Source: Alphaproteobacteria bacterium (GTDB taxonomy: Bacteria; Pseudomonadota; Alphaproteobacteria; Puniceispirillales; UBA1172). Taken from it: a stretch of 53,195 bases of DNA. The position numbers and the translations under genes were made by a program. Shown in pieces: positions 10,621-37,406 of the stretch; position 1 is the stretch's first letter; the number at the start of each line of letters is the position of its first letter. The notes under the pieces were generated by a model. That model was not told the origin of the DNA. It did not search any database and was given only the letters and a program-made list of their open reading frames with translations. The stretch covers positions 1-53,195 of the forward strand of contig JAHEII010000007.1 in the NCBI GenBank assembly GCA_024639485.1, written 5' to 3'.

Positions 10621-10941
10621 TTAATAATCAGCGATAATCTGCAAAAGCCGAGCTTTCATTGTTTTGATTTCTGTTCTGAGCATGGCATTTTCCTGCTCTA
10701 ATGCTTCTATTCTGGCGGCATCACTGGCGGCATCACTGTTTGTATTATCGGCAGTATCATGGCCAGATGTCCCGGTAAGCAGATCGCTTTTGCAACTGTT
10801 ATAGGCAAATATATCCGCCGCCGAATTGCTGGCCGGAATGCATTCATGGCTCCACCCCTTGCTAACAGGCAGATAAAGATTAATCCCACAAACCATGACA
10901 GTTATCAAAGCTGCTTTTGCAAATAGACGCGTGTGATACAT
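10621..10941 (-). CDS. hypothetical exported or membrane-anchored protein with a C-terminal coiled-coil-like helix
   Basis: 106 aa. It has an N-terminal hydrophobic segment (AKAALITVMVCGINLYL), a Ser/Asp/Thr-rich middle, and the heptad-like end IEALEQENAMLRTEIKTMKARLLQII. No family recognised. Confidence 0.45.
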   Translation of the reverse strand: MYHTRLFAKAALITVMVCGINLYLPVSKGWSHECIPASNSAADIFAYNSCKSDLLTGTSGHDTADNTNSDAASDAARIEALEQENAMLRTEIKTMKARLLQIIADY

Positions 10942-13611: not shown

Positions 13612-14451
13612 ATGACAGATAATCAGATCATCATATGGCGCATTAATGGGCGTGGCTGTCTGGGCGTTACCGGCGTTGAGGCAGAAGCATTTCTCAATGA
13701 TTTGCTGACCCTTGATATGGCTACCATAACCGCCGATCAAGTTGTTCCGGCCATTTTGCTGACCCCGCAAGGACGGATTATTTTTGATCTGCTGATCAGC
13801 CGTATCCCCGATGGCTTCCGGCTAGAATGTGATGAACACCGGCTTGATGATCTGATCAAGAAACTCCGGCTATACCGGCTCCGGCGGGATATTGCGCTAA
13901 CACTGCTGGATGAGCCTGTTTTTGCTTTGGCAGTTCCAGATCATATGGATGGATGGCTCCGCGATAGCCGTTTTCAGGAAATCACCGCCAGCCGTTATTA
14001 TGGCATGCCGCATTCTAATCAAGCGGTCAGAATAGCAGATGATAATACTGCCTATCACGCGTTGCGCTATCGGCATGGCATCCCCGAAGGAAGCGCGGAG
14101 CTGCCAGCAGAAAAAGCACTACCACTAGAAGCCGGAATGGACAGGCAAGGCGCTATCAGTTTCAACAAAGGCTGTTTTATCGGTCAGGAAGTCACCGCAA
14201 GAACCCGCTATCGGGGCTTGTTAAAACGGCGATACATTCCTTTTGTGGCCACAACTGATATTTCTGTTCCTGCTGATATTCACGCAAATGATAAACTGGC
14301 TGGAGAAACGCTGGCGATTGTCAGGGACGGCGATGGCTGGATCGGGCTTGCCAATATCCGGCTAGATGCGCTGGACACCGGCCAAACATTAATGGTCGGA
14401 ACAGATCAAATTATACCGCTAACTATTGCCAAAAGCACCACAAAGGCTTGA
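13612..14451 (+). CDS. ygfZ: YgfZ/CAF17 family folate-binding protein (aminomethyltransferase-like, Fe-S cluster repair)
   Basis: 279 aa with the signature KGCFIGQEVTAR (the family KGCY.GQE motif) and GcvT-like N-terminal features. Confidence 0.8.
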   Translation: MTDNQIIIWRINGRGCLGVTGVEAEAFLNDLLTLDMATITADQVVPAILLTPQGRIIFDLLISRIPDGFRLECDEHRLDDLIKKLRLYRLRRDIALTLLDEPVFALAVPDHMDGWLRDSRFQEITASRYYGMPHSNQAVRIADDNTAYHALRYRHGIPEGSAELPAEKALPLEAGMDRQGAISFNKGCFIGQEVTARTRYRGLLKRRYIPFVATTDISVPADIHANDKLAGETLAIVRDGDGWIGLANIRLDALDTGQTLMVGTDQIIPLTIAKSTTKA

Positions 14452-33624: not shown

Positions 33625-33732
33625 ACACTTAATTTATGCTTTTTAATGATGAGTGCCAAGCCCAAAGCGCATGTCATGCCATGCCCCTGTATAATCGCCA
33701 TATCAATGGCTTTATTATTAAAATCAGCTGAT

Positions 33733-34833
33733 ATGAATAACCGATCTATCTCAACTAGCCGCACAAGCCAGTTCATAACCAACGGCATATCGCTGACCGA
33801 AATGCTGGTGGCTATAATATTATTAAGTCTGGTAACCGGATTTGCTTTTACGGCCATATCCACCATGCGGAAAAATTATCTGGTTGAGGCCGCAATAGCG
33901 TCTGACCGTATTAGCACCACCATGGCATTAACCAGCCTTGCCCGACAATATTATGAGAATCCTGATTTTGCCAGAAATGCGCCTGCCGCTTATCCTGTCA
34001 CCGATGATATCGATGATAGCCGCCTGACGATTTTAAGCTTGCGTGGCGGCCAGAGCAGTTATGACGCGTCAGGTGCAGTAAGATGCGTGTTAACCAATAT
34101 TGATACCGGCACCAGTTCAGCGACAATACCAGCGGCTTGTCTGGCCGCCTATCGCTTAACGCCAGATGACGTTATCACGACGTTTCAACATATGGCCCTG
34201 CCAGTTATTTTTCCTGAATGGTCGGCAGAACCCTGTCTGATCAATCAGATGGTCGCAGAACAGAATGTCATCCGCTTTACTGTTTATAACGCGGCTTGTC
34301 TGAGCGCTGGCATCGATGCAGGCCAGCCGTCAAGACAAGCGTTTCATCTGCCGCGATTAGTCGCTTTATCACATAACCGAAAACAAAAGCAGGATATGAT
34401 ACTGGGTGAAGCGGCGGCCAGTGATCATCATTTGGCAAGCCCCGGATTCATCAATCACCCTGTCCGCGCAGATGGCATCTGGATCAATTCCACAAGCACC
34501 CGCCCGGCAGACCGATTTGCTGTCCAGCCGGTTAGTCTGTTCCAATTTGGCGGTACAGCATGGATTTTGCCGCCCTTGATACATGGACTGAGCGCTGTTG
34601 AATTGCATATAGAAAGCCCGACCGACACTACTCTGATCATGCGTGATTGCACACAAGCCGGACAACAGAGCCTGCGTCTGAACGGGCTTACTCCGGCGAT
34701 GCTGGCATCTGTTTTTTATGGATTATGTTTTCAACGCCAAGGCCATGATACGGCTGAGCTGATGATCACTATCAGCGGCGGCAACAGTCAATGGCGGCGA
34801 GGGATCAGTTTCCGCTACATGCCAGCACCATGA
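33733..34833 (+). CDS. hypothetical protein with a prepilin-type (class III signal peptide) N-terminus
   Basis: From the internal ATG the protein begins MNNRSISTSRTSQFITNG|ISLTEMLVAIILLSLVTGFAFTAI. This is a basic leader, a Gly at -1, a Glu at +5 and then about 20 hydrophobic residues. It is a near match to the N-methylation site pattern G-[FYLIVM]-[ST]-[LT]-x-E. The remaining roughly 320 aa, with several Cys, match no family I recognise. The ORF track starts at 33601, which overlaps the divergent MFS gene. Confidence 0.55.
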   Translation: MNNRSISTSRTSQFITNGISLTEMLVAIILLSLVTGFAFTAISTMRKNYLVEAAIASDRISTTMALTSLARQYYENPDFARNAPAAYPVTDDIDDSRLTILSLRGGQSSYDASGAVRCVLTNIDTGTSSATIPAACLAAYRLTPDDVITTFQHMALPVIFPEWSAEPCLINQMVAEQNVIRFTVYNAACLSAGIDAGQPSRQAFHLPRLVALSHNRKQKQDMILGEAAASDHHLASPGFINHPVRADGIWINSTSTRPADRFAVQPVSLFQFGGTAWILPPLIHGLSAVELHIESPTDTTLIMRDCTQAGQQSLRLNGLTPAMLASVFYGLCFQRQGHDTAELMITISGGNSQWRRGISFRYMPAP

Positions 34834-35481
34834 TCAGCTTGTCCCCGCCTGCCAGTCGCCAGCGATAATTTTATCACCTATCTGCCAGTAAGTGCCACGA
34901 ATAACCGCCAGTTGAGAAAACGGCCGGTCAGTTATCACACAGCCCATAACAATATGAACTAGATACGGCGTATCAGACCGATCCAAATCACCGGATACAG
35001 GCACGCGGCCAATCGCCATGATCAGCTGATCACCATGATGCGGATGCGCGGCAGGAGCAATCGTCATTGCGCTCATCCGCGTATCCGGACGGTGCCAGTT
35101 ATCGTCACGGGATAACACATGGCGGCAGGATTCTACCGCTTTTATCTGTTCAGCAGACAGACGATCACCGCGAGTCCAACCCAGCGGTAATCCGGCATGG
35201 GTCAGATACATATCATAAGACAGGCTAAACATATGATGCGCCATAGCCAGCGCCGCCGCCCGTGATTGATGCTGGCGCATCGTGTTTCTGTTTTCTGATT
35301 CCAGATTTAACAGCATCGGCATCATGATCCCGATTACCGCCGAAAGCATGACTACCCCGATTAATGCAAAGCCTGAGCGTGCTTGCGTATCATGGCATCG
35401 GGATATGCAGATGCGATAGATTGATATCAGCAATGCCATGACAATGTCTTTCCACCCATACGGTAAGCAAGCACATATCAT
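34834..35481 (-). CDS. hypothetical protein with a GspK/PilX-like pseudopilin N-terminus (no Glu+5)
   Basis: ...CHDTQARSG|FALIGVVMLSAVIGIMMPMLLNL resembles the RG-x-AL-I/V hydrophobic N-terminus of GspK-type minor pseudopilins. It is the only long ORF in this interval. The start may be the ATG at 35439 (MALLIS...) rather than 35481. Confidence 0.45.
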   Translation of the reverse strand: MICACLPYGWKDIVMALLISIYRICISRCHDTQARSGFALIGVVMLSAVIGIMMPMLLNLESENRNTMRQHQSRAAALAMAHHMFSLSYDMYLTHAGLPLGWTRGDRLSAEQIKAVESCRHVLSRDDNWHRPDTRMSAMTIAPAAHPHHGDQLIMAIGRVPVSGDLDRSDTPYLVHIVMGCVITDRPFSQLAVIRGTYWQIGDKIIAGDWQAGTS

Positions 35482-35486
35482 AGATC

Positions 35487-36317
35487 ATGTATAAGATGTT
35501 TCCATTATCCTTACGGCATCGCGCATGCCGCCTTAGCATCAGGTGCAAATCGCCATATCCGGCCAGCGGTGTATCGCTGATGGAAACGCTGATCTATTTC
35601 AGTCTGTTTTCCATTATCAGTCTGGCCATGATGAGTATTCAAGGCATGTTGCTAAGCACCGGATCAGATATGCGCGATCCCGCACAGAGCCCATTATCAG
35701 ACGAAACCGTTGCCGCTCAATTATCTGTTAACATTCCGGCCGCTAGCCGCCGCGACTTTTGCCAATTCACCCCTGATCCGGCTTTACCCGCCCGATTCGG
35801 CCAGAATATATCTCAAATATGGATACAGATTACCCCAACCGGCCATGAAGCGGCACGCGACTGGCTCAGCTTTGTTGAATATGGTCAGAGTAGCGTTGAG
35901 AACATCACCGAAAATGGCACAACCAGATCACGCATCCGGTATCAGGATATCAGTATAAATGGCAGTATTATCTGGCCGCAAATCACCGCCGAGTTTGATC
36001 CGGCGACTGGCATCATGCAAATCTGTACCGCCGGTTCAGCCGGATGTTCAGCCGCTATGGATATTCCGCGATCCTACACCGCATGGCGCAAAGCCATATC
36101 GCGACTGACTTATCAGCCCCGGCTACCACCGCAAGAGCCGCTTAAACGAGTCATTATATCTGCTGGAATTGCGCCATCCTGCCCTGAAAATAGTGACGGA
36201 TTTTGCGGAATAACTGTCCGGAACAACAACATCACACCGCCATCTGGTCACGCGGCCATACAGTTTGATACCACCGACTGGATGAATATTTGCCGTGTAA
36301 CCGTTTCCAATCCGTAA
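35487..36317 (+). CDS. hypothetical protein with a prepilin-type (class III signal peptide) N-terminus
   Basis: MYKMFPLSLRHRACRLSIRCKSPYPASG|VSLMETLIYFSLFSIISLAMMSI has a basic leader, Gly at -1, Glu at +5 and a hydrophobic helix. The rest is unrecognised. Confidence 0.5.
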   Translation: MYKMFPLSLRHRACRLSIRCKSPYPASGVSLMETLIYFSLFSIISLAMMSIQGMLLSTGSDMRDPAQSPLSDETVAAQLSVNIPAASRRDFCQFTPDPALPARFGQNISQIWIQITPTGHEAARDWLSFVEYGQSSVENITENGTTRSRIRYQDISINGSIIWPQITAEFDPATGIMQICTAGSAGCSAAMDIPRSYTAWRKAISRLTYQPRLPPQEPLKRVIISAGIAPSCPENSDGFCGITVRNNNITPPSGHAAIQFDTTDWMNICRVTVSNP

Positions 36318-36395: not shown

Positions 36396-37406
36396 ATGTC
36401 CAAGCATAAATATGTATCTGGATCATTAAGACGCCGTGCCAGAACTGGCCGGCTTGTCCTGAATCGCCGTGGCCGGATTCTGAATGGAAAATCAGACGCG
36501 ACTGTTTTGAATGATAGTCATCACGAAAAAGCGGTCAAGGAAGTTACTATTGAAGCCGCTGATTCCGCCGTATTAGTTATGGAAAATGATCATAATTTTT
36601 CAAAACTTGATAGCGGTAATTTCATGATATTCAAAGCTGGCAAAACCAGCACAGCTGATCAGATGGCAGACACCAAAAAATCAAAAACCGCACAGCCGGC
36701 CATGGCATCTGCAAAAAATAAAGCAATATTTAGTCAATCTTTACATATAGATAGAAACGATGCGCTAGTATCTGAACGTCTGGATAATCATGTCCAGCCA
36801 GCCGGTAAATCACTAACAAAGGCCGGGATAGAAGCACGGGCAGGGACAGCAGAACCCGTAACCAAGAATAAAAAAGCACCCATAGCGGCAACCGTTGTCC
36901 AATTGCATGCCCCGGATAGAAAAGCCAAACATGACATGCCGACACAGCAGCCATATTCTGATCATCCGGATACAATGACCAATGCCAATAGCGCAGATTC
37001 AAGCCCCAAAATGACACCTGAAATAATACCGGAACAGATAGCTGAAAACCAAACGCCCGATGCAACGCCCGATGCGCAGATATTGGCGCAACTAGAACAT
37101 GATCATGCTGATCAGGATCAGCATATATCAACGGATATGGCACAAGAAGATATGCATCTTTTGCTCGATTCGGAACAGAATTCCTATCATGACCTGACCG
37201 CTGATGATAAAATGCGCATACAGAATTGGGAAATTGGCACAAAAGTCGGCGCAGCAATGGAAACTATCGTTGCCGAAGCCATTGGTGATCAGGTTCGGCA
37301 ATTAACACGCAAAATTATTCGCGATATGCTGGATGAAGGTATTTTGCAGTTGGCTAAGAATACGGATGCGGATGATAACCCCACCGATGAAATAAATAAC
37401 GCCTGA
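36396..37406 (+). CDS. hypothetical acidic, low-complexity protein with a basic N-terminus and a helical C-terminus
   Basis: 336 aa. A good RBS (GGGAG about 8 nt upstream) is present. The N-terminus is SLRRRARTGRLVLNRRGR. A long Asp/Glu/Pro/Thr/Gln-rich middle follows. The C-terminal segment METIVAEAIGDQVRQLTRKIIRDMLDEGILQLAK looks amphipathic. No TM segment. Confidence 0.55.
   Translation: MSKHKYVSGSLRRRARTGRLVLNRRGRILNGKSDATVLNDSHHEKAVKEVTIEAADSAVLVMENDHNFSKLDSGNFMIFKAGKTSTADQMADTKKSKTAQPAMASAKNKAIFSQSLHIDRNDALVSERLDNHVQPAGKSLTKAGIEARAGTAEPVTKNKKAPIAATVVQLHAPDRKAKHDMPTQQPYSDHPDTMTNANSADSSPKMTPEIIPEQIAENQTPDATPDAQILAQLEHDHADQDQHISTDMAQEDMHLLLDSEQNSYHDLTADDKMRIQNWEIGTKVGAAMETIVAEAIGDQVRQLTRKIIRDMLDEGILQLAKNTDADDNPTDEINNA

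Follow-up and report, generated by a model that had tools for sequence, protein, structure and literature searches.

Among the minor pilin assemblies described to date, the closest in layout to the locus treated here is that of Streptococcus sanguinis, in which PilA, a small pilin lacking the glutamate at position 5 (Glu5), nucleates a tip complex with two modular pilins that possess it, PilB carrying a vWA module and PilC carrying Ig-like and ConA-like lectin modules (PMC9934059). The PilA/PilB/PilC complex is proposed to reside at the filament tip, where it initiates assembly and presents adhesins (PMC9934059; PMC8179133), and modular pilins have been reported to be widespread in monoderm and diderm bacteria (PMC8179133). 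In the HIJK complexes of type II secretion systems (T2SSs) and type IVa pili, a K subunit lacking Glu5 caps a quasi-helical stack (PMC9934059; PMC8179133). Here we describe three adjacent genes, designated g1, g2 and g3, at positions 33733-36317 of a 53,195-nucleotide stretch of DNA (assembly GCA_024639485.1, contig JAHEII010000007.1, positions 1 to 53,195 of the forward strand; hereafter the window) from an uncultured alphaproteobacterium of the Puniceispirillales, or SAR116. As a clade of heterotrophs, SAR116 ranks among the most abundant in the surface ocean, and literature searches on its pili and secretion systems found nothing specific. By analogy with the systems above, we propose with moderate confidence that the triad encodes a minor type IV pilin-like complex that would form the tip of a type 4 filament, or prime its assembly, with the machinery encoded elsewhere in the genome.

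The first gene, g1 (33733-34833, plus strand), encodes a 366-aa type IV pilin-like protein with an 18-residue leader. As read in both the open reading frame (ORF) list and the DNA, its N-terminus from 33733 is MNNRSISTSRTSQFITNG, followed by the predicted cleavage point and ISLTEMLVAIILLSLVTGFAF, the leader ending in FITNG. The core of this putative class III signal spans 33784-33852 on the plus strand and consists of Gly-1 (33784-33786) and then ISLTEMLVAIILLSLVTGFAFT, its +5 residue being Glu. Initiation at 33706 instead would yield a protein of 375 aa, and the gene calls of relatives are of either 366 or 375 aa. The second gene, g2 (34834-35439, minus strand), encodes a 201-aa pilin-like protein whose leader ends in QARSG (Gly-1 at 35373-35371) and continues, past the predicted cleavage point, with FALIGVVMLSAVIGIMMPML, in which +5 is Gly rather than Glu; its longest ORF (34834-35481, minus strand) corresponds to 215 aa, and public gene calls record the 201-aa form from 35439. 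The third gene, g3 (35487-36317, plus strand), encodes a 276-aa type IV pilin-like protein with a 28-residue leader ending in YPASG (Gly-1 at 35568-35570), after which the sequence reads VSLMETLIYFSLFSIISLAM, again with Glu at +5.

The three ORFs, their N-termini and the positions of Gly-1 agree exactly with the original prediction, made from the letters of the window, and the assignment of Glu+5 to g1 and g3 and not to g2 recurs in all relatives. That prediction had also found the proteins too large and their leaders unusually long for a standard system. The sizes prove unexceptional: 366, 215 and 276 aa are ordinary for minor and modular pilins, and window g3 is shrunken from the 780-910 aa of its larger orthologues. 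The long leaders of g1 (18 residues) and g3 (25-28 residues) are real, because no ATG, GTG or TTG lies between the listed start and the Gly in either gene; as described below, they are a trait derived in the marine lineage, distant orthologues having leaders of 5-9 residues.

Within the SAR116 loci, the N-terminal signature is the best-conserved part of all three proteins, and the leaders upstream of it are poorly conserved. With an arrow marking the predicted cleavage point, g1 reads [G/A]↓[ILV]SL[TV]E[ML]L[VM]A, g3 reads [G/A]↓[VF]SL[MI]E.L[IV]Y, and g2 reads G↓[FV]ALIGV. Among all relatives aligned, no residue other than G or A occupies position -1, and g1 and g3 never lack Glu+5. In nine aligned g2 orthologues, position +5 is G, A or T and never E, and the residues invariant across these nine lineages are Gly-1, Ala+2, a GLP motif and two Cys. 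A 12-sequence alignment of g1, spanning 15-71% identity, keeps Glu+5, the ensuing L-V-A and four Cys without exception; pairs of invariant Cys in the families point to periplasmic or extracellular domains held by disulfide bonds. A six-frame scan of the window with a regular expression for the signature (G-[hydrophobic]-[STA]-[LIFM]-x-[EG], then 16 residues without charge) returned 3 sites, all of them in g1, g2 and g3, against 0.05-0.1 in shuffled windows.

Distant orthologues carry canonical leaders (MSRPG↓FTLIELLIY and MFAARHIG↓FSLIELLVA), and distant relatives of g1 have class III signals with similarly short leaders (MFAARHIG↓FSLIELLVALSLLSIVL and KIKSG↓FSLVELLVAISLLSIVL). Short leaders (5-9 residues) and a Phe at +1 make these type IVa-like, for example in the related locus L012 (10001-11092 and 11745-14093), whereas the marine SAR116 copies have leaders of 18-28 residues, in part conserved in sequence, and I, V or L at +1, which are type IVb-like traits. 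Since the distant orthologues have short leaders, leader extension is derived in the marine lineage. A further variation is confined to one SAR116 sublineage, in which Ala replaces Gly-1 in both g1 and g3 (AGA↓VSLTE and ASA↓VSLIE; L004 at 10034 and 11835, L009 at 10034 and 11832) and g2 keeps its Gly. That two proteins of one lineage show the same change is a hint of relaxed processing or of a peptidase whose specificity has shifted. In pilin mutagenesis, Ala is the sole substitution at -1 that prepilin peptidases are known to tolerate.

Profile searches were informative chiefly through the orthologues. The curated cut-offs are 21.2 bits for N_methyl (PF07963) and 16.3 bits for TIGR02532. Orthologues of g1 score 28.3, 23.0 and 20.4 bits on N_methyl, two of them above the cut-off, and 22.6, 17.2 and 17.1 bits on TIGR02532, all above it. 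One g3 orthologue reaches 22.4 bits on N_methyl, the model matches 7 of 7 aligned members of the g3 family (best E = 1.2e-6), and both g1 and g3 of the annotated syntenic locus L001 carry precomputed N_methyl matches. Window g1 and g3 align column for column with orthologues that exceed the cut-off. By these comparisons, the triad proteins are members, at the family level, of the broad prepilin-type N-terminal domain class, of which the window copies are divergent representatives.

Assignment to any narrower family did not succeed. Direct Pfam and NCBIfam searches with the window proteins gave sub-threshold N-terminal matches alone, and T2SSI, T2SSJ, T2SSK, PilW, PilX_N and TadE produced no match to them in Pfam at E <= 10. 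None of the g1, g2 and g3 families reaches the model cut-offs for GspH/I/J/K, PilV/W/X, ComG or TadE/F, the N-terminal matches scoring, for example, 13.8 bits against a cut-off of 44.35 for gspI, 17 against 49 for ComGE and 16.7 against 52.2 for PilV. The triad also falls outside the Tad/Flp pseudopilins, with no match to TadE/Flp models and with M, V or T at +6 in place of Tyr/Phe. When the families were compared with one another by hhalign, those of g1 and g3 were alike over their N-terminal ~48 columns alone and g2 showed no significant similarity; resemblance confined to the N-terminus is usual among pilins. g1, g2 and g3 are accordingly three new pilin-like families without a Pfam or NCBIfam model. 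The suggestion that the set follows the logic of GspI/J/K or PilV/W/X therefore holds for the pattern of two Glu5 subunits and one Glu5-less subunit, which is invariant, and fails for membership by sequence. In the proposed HMM check, orthologues pass PF07963 and TIGR02532, and the window proteins stay under threshold and enter none of the GspH-K, PilV-X or TadE families.

The exact proteins of g2, g3 and the gene that follows, ORF4, fall in public clusters of 105, 76 and 53 members, respectively, all annotated 'hypothetical protein' and all from marine Alphaproteobacteria metagenome-assembled genomes (MAGs). Homologues of g1 span 99% to 39% identity, with more distant ones extending to ~15-25%, and a genome scan located them in MAGs named Candidatus Puniceispirillales or only Alphaproteobacteria. 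A profile built from the g1 alignment and run exhaustively against 1.84 billion representative proteins found only 22, including full-length relatives at E = 1e-27 to 1e-5. A scan of metagenomes added two short contigs and nothing more, and tblastn of distant g1 and g3 proteins against a plasmid collection gave no match. As far as these searches reach, the triad is limited to the Puniceispirillales and a few related lineages. In pairwise codon comparisons, third positions hold most of the substitutions in g1, g2 and g3; for g2 against L002 the differences at codon positions 1, 2 and 3 number 35, 20 and 83, a bias that confirms its minus-strand frame. Judged by this substitution pattern, all three are genuine genes under purifying selection.

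The arrangement of the triad is as well conserved as its N-termini. The genes are not co-oriented, as had been noted from the window, and in the neighbourhoods read, which cover relatives both close and distant, their plus-minus-plus order recurs in 17 loci. In each, g1 lies on the plus strand; g2, on the minus strand and encoding 178-210 aa, ends 0-50 bp from the end of g1; and g3 diverges from g2 across 30-185 bp. In the window, the divergent starts of g2 and g3 are separated by 47 bp (35440-35486), within which overlapping divergent promoters are presumed to lie. The SAR116-type loci also keep their flanks, namely an MFS gene upstream and a methylmalonate-semialdehyde-type dehydrogenase gene downstream. 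The neighbours are unrelated at L014, L015 and L019/L020, and L013 retains just the MFS gene. Because the triad is kept together even where the surroundings differ, its genes are selected as a set. In the proposed synteny check on a four-gene block, three genes prove conserved, ORF4 being absent from L013-L016.

The flanks of the triad are metabolic, as first described, with an MFS gene upstream and an aldehyde dehydrogenase-type gene downstream; they match the annotated syntenic genes of L001 in the order thiolase, Ldh_2, DAO, MFS, the block itself, aldehyde dehydrogenase, AsnC and GT2. Pfam scans of 44 other ORFs of the window returned housekeeping and metabolic families alone (e.g., his, pur, pnt, methylmalonyl-CoA mutase, tRNA/rRNA methylases). 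The GC content of the triad genes is 0.50-0.52, compared with 0.487 for the window, and their GC content at third codon positions resembles that of neighbouring genes. With this native composition, which had been judged by eye in the original prediction, and with ancient synteny, the triad is not a recent island. Nor is g2 an invertible element, since no inverted repeats flank it and it never changes orientation among the loci.

The g1/g2 junction presents a feature of its own. The stop codons of the two genes stand back-to-back at 34833/34834, and both here and at the equivalent junctions in L002 and L012 the convergent stops are free of terminator-like structure, so that transcription of g1 would run antisense into g2. 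A convergent junction of 0-50 bp is kept in all loci and may constitute a transcriptional-interference device.

Outside the marine SAR116 lineages, g3 is a much larger, modular protein of 780-910 aa. In L012, L013 and L014 it contains a Laminin_G_3 (LamG) domain, a ConA-like lectin fold, at 50.8-74.4 bits. The C-terminus of the large g3 proteins carries a motif of the form FTKWADNEPND...GKWNDY, located in L014 at 14196-14291 (residues 810-841) and similar in L012 and L013. This EPN...WND segment aligns weakly (E = 0.18) with the Ca2+/sugar-binding region of the carbohydrate-recognition domain of surfactant protein D, and Pfam Lectin_C gave no match to the large g3 ends; a C-type-lectin-like end of g3 is therefore a weak lead and not a domain assignment. 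A match to TafC, a haloarchaeal Tat-fimbria protein, was set aside as LamG-domain similarity alone. Window g3 aligns with the N-terminal pilin segment of the large proteins, and its residues 88-233 align with positions ~405-625. As it aligns to those parts only, the LamG region and the lectin-like end have been deleted in this lineage. The combination that defines a modular type IV pilin, an N-terminal motif plus a non-pilin domain, is found in the g3 orthologues and is not found in the 276-aa g3 of the window. Some relatives of g1 are likewise extended, to 650-768 aa.

Structure prediction yielded a mixed picture. The AlphaFold2 model of g1 built with the 12-sequence alignment has a mean pLDDT of 74.7 (52 for a first model) and features a single 55-residue helix (residues 21-75) followed by beta-rich domains, which supports a long alpha1 helix in the predicted protein. 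The proposed AlphaFold check thus returned the expected long N-terminal helix and beta-rich domains for g1, and not a solved pilin fold: a Foldseek search of the g1 model against the PDB retrieved no solved pilin head, the best matches being Ig-like or beta-sandwich folds with TM <= 0.23. PDB profile searches with all three families found nothing relevant. The sole sub-0.01 PDB match for the globular part of g1, to the cyclic pyranopterin monophosphate synthase MoaC (residues 239-335, E = 0.004, 19 bits), is probably due to chance, and a match of g2 to APC (E = 0.36) was treated in the same way.

Set beside the described systems, the triad most resembles PilA/PilB/PilC in layout. Both are sets of three minor pilins, and the small Glu5-less PilA, whose class III signal is degenerate, compares with g2. 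The ConA/LamG-type lectin module of PilC has its counterpart in the g3 orthologues, and its Ig-like module may be set against the weak Ig-like matches of the g1 model. The differences are equally clear. The triad has no detectable sequence similarity to any solved structure, those of PilA, PilB and PilC included; it occurs in a diderm alphaproteobacterium, outside a pil locus and with its middle gene inverted; and g3 of the window is without lectin modules. The likeness to the HIJK sets (GspH/I/J/K; FimU/PilV/PilW/PilX) lies in one member lacking Glu5 and the others having it, in sizes comparable to those of PilX and PilW (~200 and 270 aa), and in a set that works with a machine possibly encoded at another locus. 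Unlike HIJK, the triad has three subunits rather than four, is arranged plus-minus-plus and orphan in all loci read rather than as a co-directional operon, such as usually stands with or close to other pil or gsp genes, lacks the T2SSK alpha-domain signature and reaches no HIJK or ComG model cut-off.

A third point of reference is provided by the Verru_Chthon cassette proteins A-D (TIGR02596, TIGR02598-02600), which form stand-alone multi-prepilin cassettes of unknown function located away from assembly genes. TIGR02599 is the best NCBIfam match of some triad orthologues, over their first 56-66 residues, where it scores 16-28 bits and its cut-off is 256.5. Those cassettes occur in other taxa and comprise four genes as opposed to three, and on these profile scores the triad is not a member of that family.

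From these comparisons a mechanism can be sketched. The hydrophobic N-terminal helix would insert each of g1, g2 and g3 into the inner membrane, where a prepilin peptidase would cut off the leader behind Gly-1, or behind the Ala-1 of some lineages. The three alpha1 helices would then pack into a short quasi-helical stack with g2 on top as cap or nucleator, a position suggested by its want of a Glu5 to neutralise the subunit above. The Glu5-bearing g1 and g3 would lie beneath g2 and link it to the major subunit. Ancestral g3 would have displayed its LamG and C-type-lectin-like modules at the filament tip as a carbohydrate-binding adhesin; in streamlined marine SAR116, deletion of these modules would have left mainly a priming or structural role. 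The filament itself may be a type IV pilus or a T2SS-like pseudopilus, with peptidase, ATPase, platform and any secretin presumably encoded at distant loci. It is the composition of the set, with one small Glu5-less subunit and two larger Glu5 subunits of which one is modular and bears a lectin, that points to minor-pilin tip or priming logic. A dispersed organisation is plausible in this part of the Alphaproteobacteria, given that Micavibrio, a sister lineage, is reported to have pil genes that are scattered, several operons of prepilin type and a T2SS without annotated GspC/G/H/K (PMC3189940).

Several observations weigh against this proposal. Consistent with the original prediction, Pfam scans of 44 other ORFs and the syntenic flank matches revealed no peptidase A24, T2SSE, T2SSF/platform, secretin or further pilin in the 53-kb window, and no type 4 filament machinery is found within 10 kb of the triad in any annotated relative. 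The inverted middle gene is foreign to known minor-pilin operons, and the globular domains match neither a minor-pilin family nor a pilin of solved structure. The window proteins themselves fall short of the N_methyl cut-off, with 14.4 bits for g1, 12.0 bits for g3 and no match for g2, so that the class III reading derives from the motif and the orthologues and not from a direct HMM call. Their long leaders and non-Phe +1 residues, together with Ala-1 in two related lineages, would also fit relaxed processing. Finally, the module appears dispensable in one genome. At L010 (9947-11700, MAG JAYQOF010000005.1, on a 1.6-Mb contig), the first ~250 residues of g1 alone are detectable, and these are interrupted; g2 and g3 are absent, and ORF4, frameshifted, follows the g1 remnant directly at 10694, with the flanks of the triad retained. 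This apparent loss of g2, g3 and the end of g1 could be a genuine ~1.9-kb deletion or an artefact of long-read assembly.

The likeliest alternative is that the marine proteins keep a pilin-derived helix simply as a membrane anchor and operate, uncleaved and unpolymerised, as a bitopic complex of the inner membrane or periplasm. We regard this as possible, if doubtful. The constraint on the N-termini is difficult to reconcile with it: only G or A is admitted at position -1, every g1 and g3 has Glu+5, and the lack of Glu+5 in g2 is equally conserved, when a plain anchor needs no such constraint. Moreover, purifying selection and fixed gene order continue in the marine lineage. In favour of a relic are the sub-threshold HMM scores, the I or V at +1, the long leaders, the Ala-1 of g1 and g3 in L004 and L009, a g3 stripped of its LamG and lectin-like modules, the deletion at L010 and the want of machinery nearby.

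We think it unlikely that the triad represents a new pilin-derived surface or envelope module without a dedicated canonical machine, whether as a stand-alone three-subunit stub or as a passenger of an unrelated export system. Were that so, the plus-minus-plus arrangement might serve as a convergent/divergent transcription circuit that sets subunit stoichiometry, and the triad would be a pilin-derived module in a globally abundant, streamlined bacterioplankton clade otherwise without pili. Very improbable, in our estimation, is the stronger idea raised in the original prediction, that of a self-contained minimal filament or tip module assembling without the canonical type 4 filament machine. 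The triad is indeed orphan in every context read and moves as a unit between unrelated neighbourhoods, and when all loci were scanned with a relaxed motif, neither a fourth pilin-like ORF nor one resembling a major pilin turned up beside it. Yet orphan status is the sole argument for such a filament, and minor pilin sets often have an orphan position, which is uninformative about the rest of the genome; furthermore, we know of no pilin that polymerises without peptidase, ATPase and platform. That the ORFs are ordinary signal anchors or spurious frames resembling pilins by chance, as the sub-threshold window scores and the failure of Foldseek to find a pilin fold might suggest, is effectively refuted by orthologues above curated thresholds, conservation across 17 loci and public clusters of 105 and 76 members, third-codon-position bias, and three of three motif sites falling in adjacent genes where ~0.1 would be expected.

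The triad offers a concrete handle on the means by which SAR116 cells adhere to algae, particles or polysaccharides or import DNA. It also adds a diderm example of a three-subunit set, one Glu5-less and two modular, to a layout so far worked out in S. sanguinis, and one distinguished by an unusual, strictly conserved inversion of the middle gene. The open-ocean lineage has shed its adhesin modules and one MAG apparently the triad itself, giving a natural series for following how surface structures are streamlined.

Downstream of the triad lies ORF4 (36396-37406, plus strand), which encodes a 336-aa protein that is not pilin-like and has no Pfam or NCBIfam match. Its ends are conserved, the N-terminus being basic (RRRARTGRLVLNRRGRILN ... 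ENDHNFSKLDSGNFMIFKA) and the C-terminus helical (QNWEIGTKVGAAMETIVAEAIGDQVRQLTRKIIRDML), and its middle is fast-evolving, acidic and Pro-rich. ORF4 occurs in L012 and the SAR116-type loci; it is absent from L013-L015 and from L016, which keeps the flanks, and on this ground is probably no part of the core module. In locus L011 (9995-10923, MAG JAQCJL010000030.1), g1 is split over two frames near residue 60; the assembly coverage is 0.07, and the frameshift is probably a sequencing error rather than the mark of a pseudogene.

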